Of a DNA stretch of 64,000 nt, positions 1,816-45,893 are shown in pieces. The translations under genes and the position numbers were made by a program. The DNA lies in NCBI GenBank assembly GCA_964545975.1, contig CAZJHY010000002.1, positions 18,867 through 82,866 of the forward strand, written 5' to 3'. The notes under the pieces were generated by a model. The model did no database searches, was not told the origin of the DNA, and saw only the letters and a program-made list of their open reading frames with translations. Positions within the stretch are counted from its first letter, which is position 1, and each line of letters opens with the position of its first letter. This stretch comes from an uncultured Clostridia bacterium. Its GTDB lineage: Bacteria; Bacillota; DTU025; MWDF01.

Positions 1816-1885
1816 ATAGGTGCCCTCCCTTGGAAAAACTGGATTGTATTTTCATTATCGCACAGGTTATGATTCGTTGTAAGAT

Positions 1886-1990
1886 AACCGCGCTCCGAGC
1901 CGGACGACCTAAAGCGAGAAGCTATGGGCTTCCGGCCGACAGGGCCAGGGGGGAAACGCCCTGACCTCCCTTTTGGAAAGGATTGCGGCA
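1886..1990 (+). promoter_or_regulatory. Candidate molybdenum/tungsten cofactor (Moco/Tuco RNA motif) riboswitch aptamer
   Basis: CUCCGAGCC is at 1893-1901 and CCUCCC-N4-GGAAAGG is at 1965-1981. Closing helix: CCGC 1888-1891 with GCGG 1985-1988. Inner helices: GCCGG 1899-1903 with CCGGC 1932-1936, and CAGGG 1946-1950 with CCCUG 1959-1963. These were matched from memory to the published consensus and not searched. Confidence 0.6.
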
Positions 1991-2003
1991 GGCTTGAGTT
2001 TTC

Positions 2004-34369: not shown

Positions 34370-34843
34370 TTGAAGCATCTTAGTTTTAGGCTGACAATAC
34401 TCGTAATCCTGATTTCCATATTCATGCCGCACATAGCCCTTGCCGTGGATAAAGGGCTCAGCTACGAATGGGTCAGGGAAGGACTTACGGCTCCGCTGGC
34501 TGCCGTAAGCGGTGACGGTTCCGTCCTTGTAGCAGACGGCGAGCAGCTGTTGAGGCTCACCGGTGCTGGCGTTCAGCAATGGAGCATCAAGCTGGGTGAG
34601 AAAACAAAATTCCTGGAGGCGGACGCAAAGGGAGGATGCTGGGCAGCTTCCGATGAAACCGTCGCAAGGGTGCTGCCATCAGGTAAGGTCTCATGGACAT
34701 ATCGCTGCGATGAGAGGATCACCTGCCTGGAGCCCCTGCCCGACGGAAGGGTGCTTGTGGGGACCAGCCTGGGAGGCTTCCTGCTGGATGAGGATGGCAG
34801 GTTCGTGTGGCTGTACGACCCAGCCACCGGCTGCGACACTTGA
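34370..34843 (+). CDS. Secreted beta-propeller-like protein, N-terminal half; ends at an in-frame TGA
   Basis: TTG start and a signal peptide. PQQ-like blade motifs recur (G-x-V-x-W). The C-terminus is ..ATGCDT-TGA. Confidence 0.6.
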   Translation: MKHLSFRLTILVILISIFMPHIALAVDKGLSYEWVREGLTAPLAAVSGDGSVLVADGEQLLRLTGAGVQQWSIKLGEKTKFLEADAKGGCWAASDETVARVLPSGKVSWTYRCDERITCLEPLPDGRVLVGTSLGGFLLDEDGRFVWLYDPATGCDT

Positions 34844-34852
34844 ATACCTATC

Positions 34853-34880
34853 ATTCTTGGACCTGTAAGGTCCATGGAAT
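34853..34880 (+). other. Stem-loop immediately 3' of the in-frame TGA (SECIS-like candidate, or a structure occluding the next ATG)
   Basis: ATTC with GAAT forms the lower stem, with an internal loop. GGACC (34859-34863) pairs with GGTCC (34869-34873) around the loop UGUAA. Confidence 0.45.
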
Positions 34881-35461
34881 ACCTCGGCGGAGATGACATA
34901 CTCTTCCTCGGTCAGGTTTTCGGCATATACAGCGACATGGAGGCGCTCGACTACCTTACCGTGGTGAGCGTCAAATACGGGGACACATCTTACGACTGCA
35001 ATTACCTGTGGCCTTTCAATCTCTACGAGGCAGTGGCGGTGGCAAGGGATGCGATAGTAGTGTCTGCCGACTACCGGAGGGTCTGCAGATGGAACGGGGT
35101 AAGCGGCACGACGGTAGACTGGCAGGTATCAATCGATATCCCTTCCTACATCGTCAGGAGAGATGAGGGAAGCGTACTTGCGGTGGCCGATGATATGAGA
35201 ACAGCATTCCCGATCATGCTTTCCGACGGAAAGGTAGAAGCGGGTTCCTCCCTGCCGTTCGCAATTATCGCAAGACCTGCATCCCTGGGGGAAAATGGGG
35301 TGGCAATCGCGGGGCAGGGGGTAGTCGCCCTCCTCTCATGGGACCTTTTGGTCCTTGGGGAGATCCGCGACGACAGGATAGGTCAGGGGAGCATCCTAAT
35401 CCCTGATAGGGACTCAGTGATAGTAGTAGGGAGAGGATTTGTGGCGAAGATAGAGCTATAA
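34874..35461 (+). CDS. Beta-propeller-like protein, C-terminal half; same frame as 34370..34843, no signal peptide
   Basis: The ATG at 34874 is in phase with the upstream ORF, with 10 sense codons between the TGA and the ATG. Blade-like repeats continue. Confidence 0.55.
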   Translation: MEYLGGDDILFLGQVFGIYSDMEALDYLTVVSVKYGDTSYDCNYLWPFNLYEAVAVARDAIVVSADYRRVCRWNGVSGTTVDWQVSIDIPSYIVRRDEGSVLAVADDMRTAFPIMLSDGKVEAGSSLPFAIIARPASLGENGVAIAGQGVVALLSWDLLVLGEIRDDRIGQGSILIPDRDSVIVVGRGFVAKIEL

Positions 35462-36388
35462 GAAAGATGAGGGCTTTGCTGACCTGCAGGCGAAGCAGCG
35501 CAGCTTCGTGAAGCCCTCGCTTGTATAGAGCCTGAGCGCAGTCTCGTTGTCCGCATTCACGCTAAGAGTAGTCACTCCGAAGCCCTTCACGCTGGCGACC
35601 GAAACGAGGCTTCTGAGAAGCGCCCTGCCGAGCCCCATGCCCTGCCTGTCGGGAAGCACCGCTATAGGCCCGATGTTCATCGAGGGCTTGCCTTCAAGCA
35701 CATCTCGTGAACCTCTGGCCACGGCAACGGCCGTGCCCCGTTCTTCCAGCATCAGCATGGCTCCATCGATTCCATCGGTCGAGGAGGCCATCAAAGAGAC
35801 TTCTTCGGGAGACTGCGGCGCCTCATTGCCCTTAACCGCGGCGAAGGCGGCGTTTCTTACCTTGCACCATGCATGCTCATCCTTCCCCATTACAAAGGGC
35901 CTGATAGCGAAGCCTTCAGGAAGGGCGACTTCACCAGGCGGAAGCGCAGTGTCCCTCTTAAGGGAGTATACATTCCTTTCGATAGTGAAGCCCAAATCAT
36001 CGAGAAGGCCGCTCAGATGTGCGTCCTCAAGTGGCGCGAAGAAGTAGGCCGTATCTATGCCGGCGGCCTCCTTCATCAACTCGGCAAGAAGGAGGGCATA
36101 GTCCTCTCTGGACCCTTTTGGGCACCAAAGGATCCTGAAGCGCGCCTTCCTTGCGGCAACCGCCCTTGCTGTGAGCATGATGGACGCGGCGCCTGCGATG
36201 GACCCATCACATCCAGCAAGAATGCACGTCGGGTCGGCCTCACCGACGGCGAAGCCATGAAGCTCCTCATCGGAAAGATACGAGCCGTCGACCTTCTCCC
36301 TGCTGGCAATGCAGAACTCCTTGAACTCCCCCAGGCGGTCCGCATCAAGCTTAATGACTTCCAAGAGGTCACCACCCTCCGTACGCAA
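35456..36388 (-). CDS. Tandem-GNAT acetyltransferase (MshD-like architecture)
   Basis: The C-terminal block is IAVLPDRQGMGLGRALL and an N-terminal degenerate GNAT is present. It has a TTG start, which is uncertain. Confidence 0.65.
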   Translation of the reverse strand: MRTEGGDLLEVIKLDADRLGEFKEFCIASREKVDGSYLSDEELHGFAVGEADPTCILAGCDGSIAGAASIMLTARAVAARKARFRILWCPKGSREDYALLLAELMKEAAGIDTAYFFAPLEDAHLSGLLDDLGFTIERNVYSLKRDTALPPGEVALPEGFAIRPFVMGKDEHAWCKVRNAAFAAVKGNEAPQSPEEVSLMASSTDGIDGAMLMLEERGTAVAVARGSRDVLEGKPSMNIGPIAVLPDRQGMGLGRALLRSLVSVASVKGFGVTTLSVNADNETALRLYTSEGFTKLRCFACRSAKPSSFL

Positions 36389-36393
36389 TCTAA

Positions 36394-37302
36394 TCAGAAA
36401 TCCGTCAGCTCTCCAGAGATGCCCAGCTTATCAAGAGGGATGATGGCCCGTACGGTCATCTGTGGGTCCACGCACTGGCTTATGCGCAAGTCGACGAGAA
36501 GGCTTGCCATCATGTAGGCCTCCTCCCATCCGATGCCGCACGCCCTTGAGATATATCTGACAGCCGAATCTGTAGCTGACCGCGCCGCATCCTCAAGATC
36601 CGCTCCGGAAGATACGACCATCAGCTTGCTTCCTCGCCTGATTGCCGGCCAGCTTATGCTTAGATTCTTCACAACACTCACCTGAACGAGAACCTTAGCG
36701 GCTATCTCAAGGCCGGTGACGCAGGCCTCTCCGTCGGCCATTAGGGCATGGACGTCGCCAATGGCAAGCATCGCCCCCTCCTGGCTTACAGGAAGGTATA
36801 GGGTTGAGCCTTCTGAGATGTCCTTTGTGTCCATGTTTCCGCCGTGCCTTCCGGGAACGCCTGTAGATACCCGGCCCTGCTCCGAAGACGTCGCGACGCC
36901 GATTACGCCTATCATGGGGGAAACGGGAAGGAGCCTTCCTGCAAAGCTTGCCATCCCGGAGGAGACGGGGATGACTTTGGTTACGGATTTCTTCACTTTC
37001 GCGCCGAGAAGCCCGGCACCCGGGATTACGCTGATGACTCCACGGGAAGCGACCTCGATTGAAAGCACCGAGACGGAGAGGACGTCTCCGGGCTCTGCCC
37101 CTTCGATGAAGACCGGCCCTGTGGCGGGATTCAGGCAGGAGAAATCCACCTTGTCTATATCCTGGCCTTCGGAGCTCATCTGGCCGTGCCAGCAGTCGTG
37201 GGTCTCGAAAAGTATCAGCTCGCCGGGCTTTGCGAAAGCCACAGGGCTCATCGCAGGGGTGAATGCGCCCACTGAGCTCTCCTTTGGTATCCTTAGCATC
37301 AC
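36394..37302 (-). CDS. Acetamidase/formamidase (FmdA_AmdA) family amidohydrolase
   Basis: Motifs are GPVFIEGAEPGDVLSV, GGNMDTKDI and AIGDVHALMADGE. Confidence 0.8.
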   Translation of the reverse strand: MMLRIPKESSVGAFTPAMSPVAFAKPGELILFETHDCWHGQMSSEGQDIDKVDFSCLNPATGPVFIEGAEPGDVLSVSVLSIEVASRGVISVIPGAGLLGAKVKKSVTKVIPVSSGMASFAGRLLPVSPMIGVIGVATSSEQGRVSTGVPGRHGGNMDTKDISEGSTLYLPVSQEGAMLAIGDVHALMADGEACVTGLEIAAKVLVQVSVVKNLSISWPAIRRGSKLMVVSSGADLEDAARSATDSAVRYISRACGIGWEEAYMMASLLVDLRISQCVDPQMTVRAIIPLDKLGISGELTDF

Positions 37303-37314
37303 GCCACCTCCCGA

Positions 37315-38109
37315 CTACTTAAGGAAATTCCACTCATCCGCCCTGTATTTGCCTACAAGCTCCGTGGCTCGCCTAACCTCTGCATCGCTAAGGCCTGCCT
37401 CAGTAAGGGGCGAACCCACCAGCTTTCCGAACTCCTCTGAGATGGACCCAGTAAGCTCATAGGCCCCGACCTTCCTGCCGAGCGCCTCATCCACGGTCGC
37501 AATCCCTCCGGTAAGCCTTCCTTTCATGGTTTCCGGGAGGGCGCACACCTTCAAAAGCGCATCTATATCGGCGGACATGAGTATGGAGCCATGCTGCAGG
37601 AAGTGCCTTCCCGACCTGAACTGCGCGCTTCCTATGATCTTCCTGCCCCTCCAGGCGACCTCGAAGCTGGACGGCACGTCGAAGCAGGCGGCTGTCTTCT
37701 CCTTGCCCCTGTCGCTGTAAGCCGGCACAAGGTCGGCCGCTATCCCGTATGCCTTAAGCCCGTCTGACAGGGCGCTGCTGATCATCATGTAAACGTCGAG
37801 GACAGCCCCTCCCCCGAAGAGAAGGGAGTCGGCGATTACGCTGTACGTAAGCTCGTCGTCATGGAGCACGGCGCGGCCTCCGGTCCTTCTTCTCACCATC
37901 GTGAAGCCTCTGGACCGCACCTCCTCCATGTCGCATGATTCCACCGCCTTCTGGTTGTAGCCCAATGAAAGGCAGGGCGGATTCCATGTATAGAACCTGA
38001 GGGTGGGCGGAGATGCGCCGGCTATTACGGATTCGAGCACCGCCTCATCGGCCGCCATGTTCCAGGCGCCCTCCGATGCTGGCGATATGATAAGCCTCCA
38101 CTGCGCCAA
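37315..38109 (-). CDS. Lipoate-protein ligase / octanoyltransferase (LplA/LipM-type catalytic domain)
   Basis: Motifs are PTLRFYTWNPPCLSLGYNQ, RRRTGGRAVLHDDELTYS, GRKIIGSAQFR and LQHGSIL. Confidence 0.8.
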   Translation of the reverse strand: MAQWRLIISPASEGAWNMAADEAVLESVIAGASPPTLRFYTWNPPCLSLGYNQKAVESCDMEEVRSRGFTMVRRRTGGRAVLHDDELTYSVIADSLLFGGGAVLDVYMMISSALSDGLKAYGIAADLVPAYSDRGKEKTAACFDVPSSFEVAWRGRKIIGSAQFRSGRHFLQHGSILMSADIDALLKVCALPETMKGRLTGGIATVDEALGRKVGAYELTGSISEEFGKLVGSPLTEAGLSDAEVRRATELVGKYRADEWNFLK

Positions 38110-38123
38110 ATGAATCCCTCCCG

Positions 38124-39122
38124 TCAGTCCAGCATAAGACCCTCAAGGGCCATAGACAGAGCCTTCTCGGATTCCTCGCTGGTCAGCGCCTTAGGGTAGT
38201 TGTAGAGCTCCGCGCCCGGGCTTTCGTTGTAGTAGGGCCTGTTGCAGAAGCTGCAGCCGGAAGTAAGAAACGGGGAACCTCCTGCTGCCAGCAAGACTAT
38301 GTCGTGCTCCTTAAGCGAGATGCCGCTGAGCCTTCCATCTACATCGAAGCGCATCCCATCCGCCTTAAGGTCATGGTGTTTAATCAGCCAGAAAGCGAGC
38401 TGCACCCTCCTGTAGGAGCGGATGTCCGGCTTTGGGTGCCCTTCCATCTCCGTACCCCTAAGGGGGGTGAAGGCGAACAGGCCGAGGCCTACACCCATAT
38501 CCTTCATCTTGGCAGCGAGAAGGAGCAGGTCTTTTTCGGTTTCGCCCATTCCTGAGATCAGATGGGTCGATATTCTCCCCGGGTACTTGGAAGAAGCCTC
38601 GGAGATGAGCCTCATCGAAGCCTCCATGGAGGACTTCTTTATCAGAAGGTGCAGCTTAGGATTGCAGGCGTCTATCGAGAGGGCAACCTTGTCGGCTCCC
38701 GCCTCGATAATGCTTCCTATGTCGCCTAAACCCGCCGTCGCGCTGAATGATACAGATATCGGTGTTCCGCCCTCGCAGGCATCTCTTAGCTTTCCCACTG
38801 CAGCCACGACTGCCTTCAGGGATGAGCTTCCTCCAACGGTCTGAATGCAGACACGCCTGATGATGCCGGTTGCTGTGGCAGCACCAAGGGCCTGCATGAG
38901 CTCCTTCTCTTCTGCCTCCGGCCAGGTGATCCGGGACAGCCTGCCCGCGCCGGCGCCGCTTCTTCTTGCCTGGGCGCAGAACGCGCAGTCTCTTACGCAC
39001 TTCTCCCCCAGCATGATGTAGGCGGTGGTAGGAAGGGCGTCGGCCTTAATGTCCATGAGGCCCAAAGCGGCCATGGTCCCGGAGGACGGCCTGAACTTAA
39101 GGGCCTGCCCTGGGTCATCCAT
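38124..39122 (-). CDS. Radical SAM protein, biotin-synthase-like; candidate LipS1/LipS2-type lipoyl synthase subunit
   Basis: CVRDCAFC equals CX3CX2C, and there is no LipA-type CX4CX5C motif. The gene sits between the ligase and a second rSAM gene, which it overlaps by 8 nt. Confidence 0.65.
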   Translation of the reverse strand: MDDPGQALKFRPSSGTMAALGLMDIKADALPTTAYIMLGEKCVRDCAFCAQARRSGAGAGRLSRITWPEAEEKELMQALGAATATGIIRRVCIQTVGGSSSLKAVVAAVGKLRDACEGGTPISVSFSATAGLGDIGSIIEAGADKVALSIDACNPKLHLLIKKSSMEASMRLISEASSKYPGRISTHLISGMGETEKDLLLLAAKMKDMGVGLGLFAFTPLRGTEMEGHPKPDIRSYRRVQLAFWLIKHHDLKADGMRFDVDGRLSGISLKEHDIVLLAAGGSPFLTSGCSFCNRPYYNESPGAELYNYPKALTSEESEKALSMALEGLMLD

Positions 39123-39987
39123 CCTTCCTCATCCCCCTTCCGAGGGCGGGGAAGACGCAGCATTCATCCGCTGCAAGCACTTCGAAGCCTTCAGACTGCG
39201 CCCAGAGCACTGCCTCCTTCGCCGGCATGACGATTATGTCTGCGCCTGCTTTCAAGGCAAGGATGTCCAGCCTGGAGCGATACCCACCGGCCGGCCTCAT
39301 GCAGCCCAGCGAGACAGGAGAATTCGGGAAGGTCTCCTTCGCATGCCTTATCACATCGGCGGCTGTAGCCTCAGAAGGAGGCATTACGCCTTCCATCCTT
39401 GTCCCCTTGGTGGGCCTGAACACAATAACGACAACTCCGGGTGGCTCCGGTATGCTGCCGGAATCGGCCAAAGCCCTTATTTCATCCAGGACGCCGACGG
39501 AGAAGTACGGTTCGGAATCCGGTCCCAGCAGCCCTACCGTTATGTGGGGGATGGTGGGTACAGCGTTTGATGCCAGCACGAAGCTTCTCACATAGTCCCC
39601 CGGAGCCGACTTCGAACCATATACACCCTCAGTTATCCTTATGTCGTTTACATAGTCGAAAGAGATGACGTCGGCAACACCCGCAAGCCTTGAGATCCCA
39701 TCCTCATCCAATATGCCAGTATGGCAATTAATGGAAAGGTGGGGATGATCCTCGGATACCCTCTCGGGCCAACCCTCTATCGGGACATGTCCATAGGCAT
39801 CGCTTCCGCCTGAGATGAGCACGCTTCTTGCCGACAGGTCGATGAAGGCCGCCAGCGCTTCATCCGGCGGCCTCATCCCCTTCAGGTATCTAGCGCCGCA
39901 GTGGGCGCAGTTTAGCCCGCAGGCCTCACCGGTGACGGATATCGCCACGGTGGCCGTGGGGCGAGCGAAGATGACCTTCCTACTCAT
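39115..39987 (-). CDS. Radical SAM protein; candidate second LipS1/LipS2-type lipoyl synthase subunit
   Basis: CGLNCAHC equals CX3CX2C. It overlaps gcvPB by 8 nt. Confidence 0.65.
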
Positions 39988-41449
39988 TGTCCGCTTTAGT
40001 CCACCTCAGTACCGGTTTTCTTGCAGCAAGCGTCTCATCCAGCCTTCCGACCGGAGTGTTGTGGGGCGCTGAGTGCAGGTTCTCCGGGTTCTCCTTCGCT
40101 TCCTTAGCTATCTCCCTCATCGCCTCGATGAAGGAGTCCAGGGTCTCTTTGCTCTCAGTCTCGGTGGGCTCAATCATTATCGCCTCCTCGACTATGAGGG
40201 GGAAGTAGACTGTGGGGGCATGGTAGCCGTAGTCCAGGAGCCTCTTTGCCATGTCGAGGGTCCTTACTCCGCTCTCCTTCTTCTGCTTGGCTCCGGAGAG
40301 CACGAATTCGTGCTTGCAGGTCCTGTCGAAGTTGAGCTGGAAGTCGCTTTTAAGCTCGTGCATGAGGTAGTTGGCGTTTAGCACCGCTAGCTCGGATGCC
40401 GCCTTGAGGCCGTCCGGGCCCATCGTCCTGATGTAAGCCCAGGTCCTAAGAAGCACGCCGAAGTTGCCGTTGAAGGAGTGCACGTGGCCTATGGAATCCG
40501 GCCTGTCGAAGTCCCACCTGTACATGCCGCCGTTGAGCTCCACCAGGGGCTTGGGGAGGAATGGCTCAAGGAACTTCTTCACGCCGACTGGGCCTGCTCC
40601 CGGCCCTCCCCCGCCATGGGGCGTGGAGAAGGTCTTATGCAAATTCAGGTGGACGACGTCGAAACCCATGTCGCCGGGCCTGGATTTGCCCATTATGGCG
40701 TTTGCGTTCGCCCCGTCGTAATAGACGAGGCCGCCCGCGTCATGGACTATCTCGGTAATATCGCAGATATGCTCGTCGAAAAGGCCGAGCGTGTTGGGGT
40801 TCGTGAGCATGAGCGCCGCTGTGTCGGGACCTACCTTCGCCTTCAGGTCCTCAATGTCCACGTTGCCCCTCGCGTCCGATGCCACCTGTATGACCGTCAT
40901 CCCGGCGGCCGCCGCGCTTGCAGGGTTGGTGCCGTGAGACGAGTCGGGGGCCAGTATCTTGTCCCTCTTGCAGTCCATCCTGCTGAAGTGGTAGGCGCGG
41001 ATAATGAAAAGGCCGGTTAGCTCACCATGGGCGCCTGCCACCGGCTGGAGCGTGAACCTGTCCATGCCGCAGATCTCGGAAAGCCATAGGTCGAGGTCAT
41101 GGATGACCTTAAGGGCGCCTTGCGCGCCACGCTCCGGCATATCGGGGTGCAGCCTGGCAAAGCCGGGAAGCCTCGCCGCATCCTCGTTTATTTTCGGGTT
41201 GTACTTCATAGTGCAGCTTCCCAGAGGGTAGAATCCCGTGTCGACGCTGTGGTTAAGGTTCGAGAGGTTCACGAAGTGCCTCACCACGTCAACCTCGGAG
41301 ACTTCGGGTAGCCCCGGAGCTTGCTTTCTAATCATGCTGTCCGGCACCATGGACTCCACGGCAAGTTCCGGCACGTCCGAGGCAGGAAGGCTTACGCCCA
41401 CCCTTCCGGGCCTGCTCATCTCGAAAATCAGGGGCATGAGCCTCTTCAT
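39980..41449 (-). CDS. gcvPB: Glycine dehydrogenase (aminomethyl-transferring) subunit 2
   Basis: Typical GcvPB sequence including the PLP-Lys block [16 protein letters not shown]. Confidence 0.93.
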
Positions 41450-42798
41450 CTTGCGCTCACCTCCAGTAGGGATACGAGCCTGTCCATCTGCTCCCTGGTG
41501 CGAAGCTCGGTCACCGCCCAGAGGGAGTTGTGCTTAAGCTCGGGGTATGCGGTTGAAAGGGGTAATCCTCCGAGCATGCCTTCATCCAATAGCCTGTCTC
41601 TAAGCTCAGCCGCGCAGCCATCGCCCTCTATTGCAAACTCGTTGAAGAATGGACCTGTAAACTTGAGCTTATAGGGCGTCTTCTCTGAGATGCTCTTCGC
41701 CAGGTAGTGTGCCTTCCACATGGAAAGCTCCGCTGCCTTTCTAAGGCCTTTGGGACCCATCAGGCTCAGGTGTATCGTGGCAGCAAGCGCGCATAGAGCC
41801 TCGTTGGAACAGATGTTGCTAGTGGCGTTCTCTCGCCTTATGTGCTGCTCTCTGGTCTGAAGCGTCAGGACGAATGCCCTCTGGCCGCGGTTGTCCAGCG
41901 TCTGGCCGACGAGCCTTCCCGGCATGCGCCTTACCAGCTGCTGGGTCGCCGCCATGAAGCCGAGGAGCGGGCCTCCGAAGTTCATGCCGTTTCCCATCGA
42001 CTGTCCCTCGCCGACTGCGATGTCGGCGCCGTAGGCTCTCGGTGCTTCAAGCACAGCGAGGCTTACCGGGTTAACCACCGTGACGAAGAAGCCCCCGTCT
42101 GAGTGGGCTGCCTCCGAAAGCCCGTGCATGTCCTCTATCACGCCCAGGTAATTGGGATTTTGAGCTATCACGCAGGCAGCCCCTTCCGCAGCCTTCCTGA
42201 GCTCCGCCGCGTCTGTCTGGCCTGTCTTGGGGTCGAAGGGGACTTCCACGACCTCGTACTCCCTGGGTTCGGCATAGGTCTTGACCACCTCGCGGTAGCG
42301 CGGGTTGGTTGCCCTGGTGATGACTACCTTCTTCCTGCCGGACTGGCTTGCGCACATTATCGAGGCTTCGGCGGCTGCCGTGCCGGCGTCATACATCGAT
42401 GCGTTCGCCTGGTCCATGCCGGTGAGCTCGCATATCATCGTCTGATACTGGAAGATCGCGGTGAGGGTCCCCTGGCTTACCTCCGGCTGATAGGGCGTAT
42501 AGGCTGTGTAGAACTCGCCGCGCCTTAGCATGTGGTCCACCACGGATGGCACGAAGTGGTCGTAGATGCCGCCTCCTGCGAAACAGACCGCGCATGCATC
42601 ATTCATTTTGGCTATCATGTCCAGCTCGGCTACCAGCTCGGGCTCCGAAAGAGATTCGGGGATGTCGAGCTTCCCGGTGAACCTAAGGCCCTCGGGGATA
42701 TCGGAGAAAAGGTCATCGATGCTCTTTGCGCCTATCGCATCCAGCATCTCGCGCACTTCCTGCTCGGTCGCAGGAAGGTAATGGCGAGGAGCTCCCAT
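41446..42798 (-). CDS. gcvPA: Glycine dehydrogenase subunit 1
   Basis: [17 protein letters not shown]. It overlaps gcvPB by 4 nt. Confidence 0.93.
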
Positions 42799-42816
42799 AT
42801 CCAGCTACCTCCTAAC

Positions 42817-43188
42817 TTAATGCTGCGACTCGAGGAACTTGCGGTAAGCTGCCTCGTCCATCAGCGCATCCAGCTCGGCGGGGTTCGCCGCCTCGATTTT
42901 CACTATCCAGCCATCTCCCTGGGGGGATTCGTTGATTATTCCGGCGTTGCTGCCTACGCCCTCGTTTACTTCAACGACCTTGCCGCTGACAGGCGAGAAT
43001 ACCTCGGCTACCGCCTTCACTGATTCGAGGTCCACGAGCTTTGCGCCCTTCTTCACGGTCGAACCGACCGCGGGAAGTTCAGCGAAGATCACGTCGCCGA
43101 GGTGCTCGGCCGCGTAATCGCTTATGCCCACTGTGACGAGCTTGCCCTCTGCCTTTGCCCATTCATGGCTGTCTGCGTACTTGAACAT
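42817..43188 (-). CDS. gcvH: Glycine cleavage system H protein
   Basis: The lipoyl-lysine block is ESVKAVAEVFSPVSGKV. Confidence 0.93.
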   Translation of the reverse strand: MFKYADSHEWAKAEGKLVTVGISDYAAEHLGDVIFAELPAVGSTVKKGAKLVDLESVKAVAEVFSPVSGKVVEVNEGVGSNAGIINESPQGDGWIVKIEAANPAELDALMDEAAYRKFLESQH

Positions 43189-43226
43189 CTCTCCAACCTC
43201 CGTATGTTTATTTCAGTGCTTGTCCA

Positions 43227-44354
43227 TCAAGGCTTCTTATAGGCTTTCTTGTAGAATGGAGTCTTCACGACGACCGCCTTCATCGCCCTGTCTCTTATCT
43301 GGACTGCTATTTCGGTGCCGGTCTTCGCGTAGGCGATGGCAACCTGCGCCATGGCGAGATTCTTGCCCAGTGTCGGGCTGGGAAGCCCGCTTGTGACCCA
43401 GCCGATCTCCGCGCCTTCGGGGGAGAGCACCTTGTAGCCGTTTCTGGGTATGCCCCTGTCTATGAGCTCGACTCCTACCTGCTTTCTTGCAAGGCCATTC
43501 TCCTTCTGGGCGATGAGGACGTCCTTTCCGATGAAGGAGGGCTTGTCCAGCTTCACGAAGTAGCCAAGCGACGCTTCAAGCGGGGTGATGTCCTTCGAAA
43601 GCTCGTGGCCGTACAGCGGCAGGCATGCCTCGAACCTGAGCGAATCCCTCGAGCCGAGCCCGCAGGGCGATACTCCGAGGTCCTCGCCGGCCTTCATCGC
43701 GCTCTCCCAGACATTGACTGCATCCTCCGGCTTCATATAGATTTCGAAGCCGTCCTCGCCGGTATAGCCCGTTCGGGAGATAAGGCACTCCGCACCTGCT
43801 ATGCCTACATTTTCCTTGCAGTAGAAGAACTTGAGCTCGTCGAGGTTGTAGTCGGTGAGCCTCTGCACCAGCTCCTGCGCCTTGGGTCCCTGCACCGCGA
43901 TTTCCGCCCATTCGGCCGATTCGTTGACGACCGTGCAGTCCCAGCCCTCGGCCTGCTTTCTGATCCATTCGTAGTCCTTGTCGGAATTGGAGGCGTTGAC
44001 AACGAGGAAGAACTCCTCGTCGGAGAGCTTGTAGGCGAGAAGGTCGTCCACTATGCCGCCTTCCGGGTAGCACATCTGGGCGTATGTGACCTGGTTCATC
44101 TCGGCGCCTGCGACGTCGTTTGTTATGAGGTTGTCCACGAACTTGAGCGTGGCCGGCCCCTTGACCCTTATCTCGCCCATGTGGGACACGTCGAAAAGGC
44201 CGACTGCCTCCCTCACGGTCCTATGCTCCTCAAGGTCGCCCTTGCCCTTGTACCTTACCGGCAGCTCCCAGCCGCCGAAGTCGACGATCATCCCGCCGTA
44301 TTTTATGTGCATCTCGTATAGCGGGGTCCTCTTCAATCCTGACAATCGGGACAC
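43227..44354 (-). CDS. gcvT: Aminomethyltransferase (glycine cleavage T protein)
   Basis: LKRTPLYEMH..GWELPVRY. The GTG at 44354 abuts the GGAG, so the TTG at 44345 (RBS spacing about 8) may be the real start. Confidence 0.92.
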   Translation of the reverse strand: MSRLSGLKRTPLYEMHIKYGGMIVDFGGWELPVRYKGKGDLEEHRTVREAVGLFDVSHMGEIRVKGPATLKFVDNLITNDVAGAEMNQVTYAQMCYPEGGIVDDLLAYKLSDEEFFLVVNASNSDKDYEWIRKQAEGWDCTVVNESAEWAEIAVQGPKAQELVQRLTDYNLDELKFFYCKENVGIAGAECLISRTGYTGEDGFEIYMKPEDAVNVWESAMKAGEDLGVSPCGLGSRDSLRFEACLPLYGHELSKDITPLEASLGYFVKLDKPSFIGKDVLIAQKENGLARKQVGVELIDRGIPRNGYKVLSPEGAEIGWVTSGLPSPTLGKNLAMAQVAIAYAKTGTEIAVQIRDRAMKAVVVKTPFYKKAYKKP

Positions 44355-44519
44355 CTCCGATATTGTGATGTGTACAAACTGTGCATGCGAATAAAGTGCG
44401 GTTCTTGCCGCTTACTATTATATAATACTCCTTGGGCTAATAGGACATAGCGGAGGGTGCGGCGAATAGCACAACTGAGAGCCTCTCCGCTTCGTTAATA
44501 TACTCGTGGAGGTATCGCG

Positions 44520-45893
44520 ATGTTCGACGTGCTGGTCATAGGCGGAGGGCCTGGAGGCTACACCTGCGCGATAAGGTCTGCCCAGCTCGGGCTCAAAGTG
44601 GCGGTCGCAGAGAGGAAGCATCTGGGGGGTATCTGCCTCAACTGGGGATGCATCCCCACCAAGGCGCTCTCCCATACTGCTGAGATGCTGGCAAACGCGA
44701 GGAGAGGCGCCGAATACGGCATCAACTCCGAGGGCGTAAGCTTCGACATAGTCAAGGCCATGTCCAGGAAGGACAGGGTAACCGCCAAGCTAAAAGCCGG
44801 CGTGGGCTACCTTATGAAGAAGAACGGCATCACCGTGATAAACGGCGACGCCAGGGTGCTATCCCCCGGAAAAGTGGAAGTGACCGCCGCGGATGGCAAC
44901 AAGCAATTGTATGAAACAAAGAACATCGTGATAGCTACCGGCTCTTCGCCCGTGGCCCCGAAGATGTTCGGTTACGACGGGAGCCTGGTGCTAACCTCGG
45001 ACGAGATGCTGGCATTGAGGGAAGTGCCGGGGGAGCTGCTGGTAGTAGGCGCCGGAGTCATCGGATGCGAGTTTGCCAGCATATACGGCACGTTCGGCAG
45101 CAAGGTGACCCTCGTAGACGTGATGCCGAGGATACTTCCCATGGTGGACGAGGAGGCGGCATCCATAGTGGAGGCCTCTTTCAGGAAGAGGGGCATGGAG
45201 GTCATCACAGGGGTGGGCGTAGGATCCGTCGAGAAGGCTGAGGGCAGGGTCGCCGCGGTATTGGAGGACGGAAGGCGCATAGAGGCCGACAGGATGCTCC
45301 TGTCCATAGGAAGAAAGCCTAACGGTTCGTCAGCAGGCGCTGCGGATGCCGGGGTCGAAATCGGCAAGGCCGGGGAGATTGTAGTCGACAACGCGATGAG
45401 CACTAACGTGCCCGGCATATGGGCCATCGGCGACGTGAACAACAGGATGCAGCTTGCCCACGTTGCGTCATATCAGGGCATGGTCTGCGCCGCTAACATG
45501 GCCGGCGGAAACCGCACGATGGGCTATTATGCCGTACCGAACTGCATCTTCACTTATCCCGAGGTGGCACAGGTCGGAGTGAGCGAGGATGGAGCCAAGT
45601 CCTCAGGGATTGAGTACACGGTCGGAAGATTCCCGTATTCGGCTCTGGGCAAGGCATCCGCGATGGGAGAGCCCGAGGGCTTCGCGAAGCTGGTTGCAGA
45701 CGGGGCAGGCAGGGTGATAGGAGGAACTGTCGTGGGAGCGCACGCGTCGGACATAATCGCCGAGGTGGCGCTGGCCGTGACCGCGGGCCTTACGCTCAAG
45801 GAAGTCGGACATACGGTCCACGCGCATCCGACGCTAGCCGAGTCGGTGCTTGAGGCCGCGGAGGCCGCCTACGGGCTGGCCATCAACATATAA
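44520..45893 (+). CDS. lpdA: Dihydrolipoyl dehydrogenase (L protein/E3)
   Basis: Motifs are GGGPGGY, the redox disulfide GGICLNWGCIPTK, and a C-terminal HAHPT block. Confidence 0.92.
   Translation: MFDVLVIGGGPGGYTCAIRSAQLGLKVAVAERKHLGGICLNWGCIPTKALSHTAEMLANARRGAEYGINSEGVSFDIVKAMSRKDRVTAKLKAGVGYLMKKNGITVINGDARVLSPGKVEVTAADGNKQLYETKNIVIATGSSPVAPKMFGYDGSLVLTSDEMLALREVPGELLVVGAGVIGCEFASIYGTFGSKVTLVDVMPRILPMVDEEAASIVEASFRKRGMEVITGVGVGSVEKAEGRVAAVLEDGRRIEADRMLLSIGRKPNGSSAGAADAGVEIGKAGEIVVDNAMSTNVPGIWAIGDVNNRMQLAHVASYQGMVCAANMAGGNRTMGYYAVPNCIFTYPEVAQVGVSEDGAKSSGIEYTVGRFPYSALGKASAMGEPEGFAKLVADGAGRVIGGTVVGAHASDIIAEVALAVTAGLTLKEVGHTVHAHPTLAESVLEAAEAAYGLAINI

Follow-up and report, generated by a model that had tools for sequence, protein, structure and literature searches.

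In the archaeon Thermococcus kodakarensis, whose genome has no LipA, lipoyl groups are made by LipS1 (TK2109) and LipS2 (TK2248), two BioB-like radical S-adenosylmethionine (radical-SAM) proteins that each hold a Cx3Cx2C cluster and an auxiliary [4Fe-4S] cluster and whose client is the H protein of glycine cleavage, GcvH (Jin et al. 2020; PMC9585515). The two Thermococcus genes lie more than 130 genes apart, and their partner is a heterodimeric LplA-LplB ligase. In the sulfur oxidisers Hyphomicrobium denitrificans and Thioalkalivibrio, an sLpl(AB)-LipS1/LipS2(-LipT) pathway is encoded in clusters that join lipS1 and lipS2 to the gene of a PF03099-family enzyme and to that of the lipoyl acceptor served, LbpA of the sHdr system; the partner there is a two-domain ligase, lipT is often present and canonical LipA/LipB coexist with the pathway (PMC6067878, Cao et al. 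2018; PMC10332631). The bacterial pathway is established, and in some bacteria, among which Sporomusa is mentioned, lipS1/lipS2 occur with lipM instead of a ligase (PMC10332631); 106 Firmicutes genomes encode both LipS1 and LipS2, 41 of them together with LipM and no Lpl (Tanabe et al. 2023, PMC10332631, S4 Table). Here we analyse such a gene set in a 64,000-nt stretch of DNA from an uncultured Clostridia bacterium (contig CAZJHY010000002.1; hereafter the window), where an earlier note, made from the letters alone, had described a glycine cleavage operon that carries an LplA-like ligase gene and two LipS1/LipS2-type genes in place of lipA.

The gene order that had been described proved correct: after gcvT, gcvH, gcvPA and gcvPB come two radical-SAM genes, lipS1 and lipS2, and then a gene of the LplA/LipB family, with lpd divergent upstream (Table 1). 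Read from the sequence, the overlaps measure 4 nt between gcvPA and gcvPB, 8 nt between gcvPB and lipS1 (ATGAGTAG) and again 8 nt between lipS1 and lipS2 (ATGGATGA). The T, H, P (alpha and beta) and L proteins form a complete set, each scoring above its curated cut-off (Pfam/NCBIfam). We consider it very probable that the operon encodes the T, H and P proteins together with a full set of enzymes that build the lipoyl cofactor on the H protein, and that the L protein comes from the divergent gene.

Compared with T. kodakarensis, the client is again GcvH and LipA is again missing from the genes found, but the host is an anaerobic bacterium of a mesophilic digester-type lineage, lipS1 and lipS2 are adjacent, overlapping and placed within the gcv operon, and the partner is a single-domain, LipM-like enzyme. 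As in the sulfur oxidisers, lipS1 and lipS2 are clustered with the genes of a PF03099-family enzyme and of the acceptor to be served; here, however, this acceptor is GcvH rather than LbpA, and no canonical route was found beside it. The components are the same as those of the LipM/LipS1/LipS2 set catalogued for Firmicutes (PMC10332631). With the LipM-LipA-LipL relay of Bacillus subtilis (reviewed in PMC7253636) the locus would share a single-domain octanoyl transferase acting on GcvH, with octanoyl-ACP (acyl carrier protein) as the expected donor; sulfur insertion, which is the task of LipA in B. subtilis, would fall to LipS2 and LipS1. B. subtilis also has the LipL relay, whereas neither LipL nor an E2 acceptor was found here, and a relay would therefore not be needed.

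The radical-SAM pair

The translations of the two radical-SAM genes contain the motifs CGLNCAHC and CVRDCAFC, and neither of them holds CX4CX5C or RSSY, the motifs of LipA; the presence of the first two and the lack of CX4CX5C had been read correctly from the letters. Pfam returned a generic Radical_SAM match for one protein of the pair and no match for the other. Such a result would also suit BioB-, HydE- or HmdB-like enzymes with another role that lie beside the gcv genes by chance, and LipS2 does show weak matches to BioB and HmdB. With the NCBIfam models, however, LipS2 reached 318.6 bits on NF053743 (cut-off 270; model positions 2-292 of 292), against 38 bits for BioB and 25 bits for LipA, and LipS1 was matched end to end by NF053742 (model positions 1-268 of 268) with no competing NCBIfam family.

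For the Thermococcus enzymes, mutagenesis has identified the cluster ligands as C27/31/34, C230, C276, C277 and the fully conserved H159 in LipS1, and as C39/43/46, C85, C276 and C279 in LipS2 (Neti et al. 2022, PMC9585515). The window proteins show the same ligand pattern, which for the auxiliary cluster consists of a Cys, a CC pair and a His in LipS1 and of a Cys and a CxxC in LipS2. C23/C27/C30, H148, C229 and C276/C277 of LipS1 are invariant in an alignment of 32 homologues, and C42/C46/C49, C92 and C290/C293 of LipS2 in one of 44, archaeal sequences being included in both.

To place the two proteins, we computed a maximum-likelihood tree that took in LipS1 and LipS2 together with BioB and LipA from related genomes. 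LipS1 formed one group separate from BioB (Shimodaira-Hasegawa-like approximate likelihood ratio test, SH-aLRT, 97) and LipS2 one group separate from LipA (support 88), and the window proteins fell within Bacillota subclades of these groups. The claim that LipS1/LipS2-type enzymes stand in for LipA is thus borne out by family models, invariant ligands and the phylogenetic placement that the earlier note had proposed as a check. Among solved structures, none related by sequence to LipS1 or LipS2 was found.

Two points weigh against this assignment. The LipS1 score of 207.1 bits stays under the NCBIfam cut-off of 230, and the LipS1 and LipS2 alignments are without the T. kodakarensis sequence, so that ligand equivalence is by matching positions. 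As to the first, LipS1 copies across seven genomes of the genus score 205-227 bits, except for the copy in genome G001, which lies in two frames; LipS1 of this genus appears to be a slightly divergent subclade that falls under the annotation threshold, and not a damaged gene. In G001 itself, a long-read metagenome-assembled genome (MAG), LipS1 is in two pieces in different frames (L016:9109-9955), through either an assembly frameshift or a pseudogene.

The low LipS1 score, like the Pfam result, could be taken in favour of unrelated radical-SAM enzymes. Set against this are the gap between the LipS2 and BioB model scores, the end-to-end LipS1 match, the invariant auxiliary-cluster ligands of both proteins and their position in the tree outside the BioB and LipA groups. 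In addition, distant Bacillota likewise have the pair next to gcvPB and a lipoyl-transfer gene, and the genome encodes a lipoyl-dependent H protein with no other lipoyl synthase found. We therefore regard chance neighbours with another function as highly improbable; judged by its sequence, the pair is LipS1 plus LipS2, the two-protein lipoyl synthase.

The LplA/LipB-family gene after lipS2

The gene after lipS2 encodes a protein of 264 aa with a single domain (PF21948/PF03099, Pfam). It had been called an LplA/LipM-type ligase; a member of this family is indeed present, but an LplA-type ligase is less likely than a LipM-type transferase. Scores on the ligase models stay far under their cut-offs: 82 bits on LplA_large (cut-off 480), 69 on LplAB (550) and 67 on TIGR00545 (280). 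Among 121 homologues, Cys142 in the motif CFxxPSxxE is 100% conserved, and Lys157 in GRKxxGSAQ, 15 residues further on, is likewise invariant. The best 120 homologues listed are all single-domain proteins of 193-311 aa, and an Atlas neighbour cluster bears the name LipM family. Where the window protein has Cys142, the LplA of Thermoplasma has Ser. The genome also encodes two ACPs above cut-off, FabF, a FabZ-like gene and PlsX; therefore, octanoyl-ACP should be available.

Several observations weigh against a LipM-type enzyme. The closest solved structure is the catalytic subunit of LplA from Thermoplasma acidophilum (E = 7e-13), and the closest NCBIfam model is LplA_large, that of the archaeal LplA catalytic subunit. 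The correspondence of Cys142 with Cys150, the acyl-enzyme cysteine of B. subtilis LipM, is presumed rather than drawn from an alignment. LipL uses C150, and the cysteines of LipM and LipB lie on different loops (PMC7253636). More generally, Cronan has cautioned that functions within PF03099 are not safely assignable from sequence (PMC7253636).

The structure and model matches would be expected if the third gene encoded an ATP-dependent LplA-type octanoate/lipoate:protein ligase that works without an LplB partner, in which case free octanoate or scavenged lipoate would be the starting material, as it is in Thermococcus and in the sulfur oxidisers. Such a ligase would also be in keeping with Lys157, which ligases share, and with the ligase partner that accompanies every experimentally characterised LipS1/S2 system (PMC10332631; PMC13692748). 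In Thioalkalivibrio, a separate lpl-like protein has weak ligase activity (bioRxiv 10.64898/2026.10.01.755906). The ligase-model scores (82 against 480 and 67 against 280) speak against this alternative, as does the family-invariant Cys that is Ser in Thermoplasma LplA. Thermoplasma LplA requires LplB for adenylation. The LplB domain (PF10437) was found neither in the own genome nor in six congeners, that is, in none of seven genomes of the genus.

A comparison within the order bears on the same question. Genomes G012, G015 and G017, which belong to another genus of the order, are without LipS1/LipS2 and have a full two-domain lipoate ligase, with the LplB domain in a frame of 355-396 aa. Within the order, lipoate salvage and LipS-based synthesis look mutually exclusive, and the genomes with a full Lpl(AB) being those without LipS1/S2 is a further point against an LplA-type ligase beside the synthase. 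Overall, we consider a ligase at this position rather unlikely and regard the gene as probably encoding a LipM-type octanoyl-ACP:GcvH transferase, a choice that draws on conserved residues, model scores and genome content.

With a LipM-type enzyme as the third component, a route can be proposed. The enzyme would take octanoate from octanoyl-ACP supplied by type II fatty-acid synthesis, a donor that we infer and that, unlike in Thermococcus, should be available here. The octanoyl group would be held as a thioester, probably on Cys142, and then passed to the lipoyl lysine of apo-GcvH. The radical-SAM [4Fe-4S] cluster of LipS2 would abstract hydrogen from C8, with sulfur coming from the auxiliary cluster (C92, C290, C293). 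LipS1 would act likewise at C6 of the 8-mercaptooctanoyl intermediate to give lipoyl-GcvH, its auxiliary cluster being held by C229, C276, C277 and probably H148. The order of sulfur insertion on protein-bound octanoyl-lysine, C8 before C6, is taken from the Thermococcus enzymes and would apply here by analogy. In glycine cleavage, Lpd would then reoxidise the dihydrolipoyl arm.

Lipoyl acceptors and competing routes

The window belongs to a MAG of 2.03 Mb in 123 contigs, estimated to be 85% complete, whose nearest relatives are uncultured MAGs, several of them from sludge digesters. In this genome, no lipA, lipB or bioB was found, the only weak matches being LipS2 itself, and lipA was not found in any of 21 genomes of the order; the search for lipA/lipB that the earlier note had suggested thus came out in favour of its reading. 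Six genomes of the genus, the own and five further ones (87-98% complete), have one PF21948 (LplA/LipB-family) gene each, which argues against LipL and a second ligase. In each of the five further genomes, this sole gene stands directly after lipS2.

GcvH carries the lipoyl-lysine motif ESVKAV and is one of only two proteins with a Biotin_lipoyl domain in the genome. The other has an EAMKM motif and adjoins a decarboxylase beta-subunit-like membrane protein; it was rejected as a lipoyl acceptor and is read as a biotin carrier. Three congeners that are 94-98% complete gave the same picture, with GcvH as the only lipoyl acceptor found. On contig C13 of the own genome, two adjacent open reading frames (ORFs; L048:931-1815 and L048:1934-2845; 294 and 303 aa) match 2-oxoacid_dh. 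The matches are confined to the C-terminal third of this 2-oxoacid dehydrogenase acyltransferase domain, neither ORF includes a lipoyl domain, and they too were rejected as acceptors.

The sLpl-LipS1/S2 route of Pseudomonadota and Aquificota is reserved for LbpA and, as a rule, leaves GcvH unmodified. By this precedent, LipS1 and LipS2 might serve an LbpA-like acceptor here, with GcvH lipoylated by a canonical route that lies undetected in the unassembled 15%; at 85% completeness, a gene that was not found is not necessarily absent, which counts against the operon as the sole route. The congeners at 94-98% completeness agree with the own genome, however: a second lipoyl-domain protein was found in neither, and LipA, LipB and a second PF21948 gene were not found in the genus. 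Moreover, the H protein scores as a genuine GcvH (151 bits, cut-off 117). We consider a hidden canonical route next to an LbpA-like client barely credible.

The sequence searches in the genus turned up no lipoyl acceptor other than GcvH and no lipoylation genes outside the operon; the client and its cofactor machinery would therefore be made together. The description of the locus as a self-sufficient operon for substrate and cofactor is upheld to this extent, with GcvH the only acceptor and no competing route detected. GcvH is presumably the only lipoyl protein of T. kodakarensis as well. A far-reaching form of this idea would hold that, throughout the order, GcvH is the sole lipoylated protein and the LipM-LipS2-LipS1 set on the same transcript its sole route, with no relay and no salvage. 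A bolder addition is that the products of two genes further downstream, of the acetamidase family and a double-GNAT protein, have the acyl-lysine cofactor as their target, for instance in the removal or editing of mis-acylated H protein. We regard this extended proposal as quite improbable. If true, it would provide a living case of the state in which the H protein is the sole lipoyl protein, which Cronan proposed as ancestor of the lipoyl relay, and would do so on a non-LipA synthase.

Operon layout and variants in Bacillota

The LplA/LipB-family gene starts with TTG, and the 14 nt that separate it from lipS2 hold a GGGAGGG ribosome-binding site. This gene had been taken as the end of the operon. 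The stretch from gcvT to this gene stands, but two more genes follow on the same strand: the acetamidase-family gene starts 12 nt further on, and the double-GNAT gene another 5 nt downstream (Table 1). As no terminator-like site was detected between the operon genes, the transcription unit probably runs on to ~35456, two genes past the LplA/LipB-family gene. The 8-nt start/stop overlaps and the synteny in ~30 Bacillota loci are signs of gene coupling. As a limit on the operon as described, co-transcription from gcvT onward is inferred from the sequence.

Table 1. Genes and intergenic region of the glycine cleavage and lipoylation locus (positions in the window).
Feature	Positions	Strand	Length	Basis
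lpd, dihydrolipoyl dehydrogenase (glycine cleavage L protein)	44520-45893	+		TIGR01350 524.9 bits, cut-off 408.8
Divergent intergenic region lpd/gcvT, presumed promoters	44355-44519		165 nt	only weak promoter-like matches
gcvT, aminomethyltransferase	43227-44354	-		NF001567 462.8 bits, TIGR00528 428.5 bits, both above cut-off
gcvH, lipoyl carrier H protein	42817-43188	-		NF002270 151.3 bits, cut-off 117
gcvPA, glycine dehydrogenase subunit 1	41446-42798	-		NF001696 615.1 bits, cut-off 364
gcvPB, glycine dehydrogenase subunit 2	39980-41449	-		NF003346 777.1 bits, cut-off 441
lipS1, first radical-SAM gene	39115-39987	-	290 aa	NF053742 207.1 bits, cut-off 230
lipS2, second radical-SAM gene	38124-39122	-	332 aa	NF053743 318.6 bits, cut-off 270
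LplA/LipB-family gene, most likely LipM-type	37315-38109	-	264 aa	PF21948/PF03099 catalytic domain only
Acetamidase/formamidase-family gene	36394-37302	-		PF03069 122 bits
Double-GNAT acetyltransferase, MshD-like architecture	35456-36388	-		GNAT Pfam matches; weak TIGR03448 match in two stretches

The acetamidase/GNAT pair follows the module only in loci of the genus (L014-L019); in same-order relatives, the operon ends at the ligase-like gene and the pair is missing. The closest solved structures of the acetamidase-family protein are the ~300-aa 'putative acetamidases' 2F4L, 2II1 and 3TKK. A link of the pair to lipoylation was set aside, given its restriction to the genus and the resemblance of the amidase to these structural-genomics entries, and we treat the pair as a lineage-specific appendage. 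Apart from lpd, no gene of the operon fits the description of lipT as an FAD oxidoreductase, lipT itself not having been searched for. Two small ORFs without a Pfam match lie at 34370-35461 (+) of the window, convergent with the operon end.

A glycine riboswitch 5' of gcvT was considered and rejected. Across the whole window, Rfam gave no glycine riboswitch at the gathering threshold, and the 165-nt lpd/gcvT intergenic region matched no family even at E<=1; its fold was no better than that of shuffled sequences (z = 0.42). Elsewhere in the window, at 1881-1999 (+), a molybdenum/tungsten cofactor riboswitch (RF01055) scored 64.5 bits, above its gathering score.

Scanning one genome per species, we obtained 33 loci with LipS2 relatives; in ~30 of them, the order is gcvT-gcvH-gcvPA-gcvPB-lipS1-lipS2-ligase-like gene, mostly followed by lpd, and they include complete genomes of Sporomusa rhizae and S. 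silvacetica as well as loci from Propionispira, Pelosinus, Acidaminococcaceae, Veillonellaceae, Desulfocucumis and Fermentithermobacillaceae. In Sporomusa, Pelosinus, Propionispira, Acidaminococcaceae and Fermentithermobacillaceae, which share the gcvTHPAPB-lipS1-lipS2-lipM order of the window, lpd comes after the lipM-like gene on the same strand. In the order of the window bacterium, by contrast, lpd is divergent upstream, a position conserved in same-order relatives. The amidase and double-GNAT genes downstream are a further difference of the window genus from those lineages. The arrangement is conserved in many Bacillota and common in the anaerobic ones, and its components have already been catalogued (PMC10332631); an explicit mention of lipS1/lipS2 lying inside a gcv operon was not found in the main text of that study.

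The gcv-lipS1-lipS2 operon was also seen on contigs that binning had assigned to 'Patescibacteria group' and 'Acholeplasmataceae' (L033 and L026). The tight grouping of the 'Acholeplasmataceae' copy with Acidaminococcaceae in the tree points to a binning error.

Variants of the synthase genes occur within the order. Between gcvPB and the ligase-like gene, genomes G007 and G011 each have a single open frame (~635-714 aa; L078:7305-9449 (+) and L079:7513-9420 (-)) in which LipS1 and LipS2 are fused, a single-chain form of the synthase. In another genus of the order, g5 (G010, G014, G016, G019 and G020; L080 in G016), gcvPB is followed by lipS2 and the ligase-like gene with no lipS1 between them. 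A full-length lipS1 is present on another contig in most of these genomes, and none was found in G019.

The locus leaves current understanding unchanged, as the enzymes, their occurrence in Firmicutes and the pairing with LipM have been published. It is of use mainly for annotation: with a score slightly below the NCBIfam cut-off, LipS1 of this clade would probably be left as a generic 'radical SAM protein', and the usual label of the third gene is 'lipoate--protein ligase family protein', though it probably encodes an octanoyl transferase. The operon, which combines a single client with a single acyl transferase and a two-protein synthase, is a tidy minimal example from a bacterium, and a bacterial LipM/LipS2/LipS1/GcvH set for reconstitution could conveniently be taken from it. 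It could also help to explain how the auxiliary clusters of LipS proteins are regenerated (PMC13692748).

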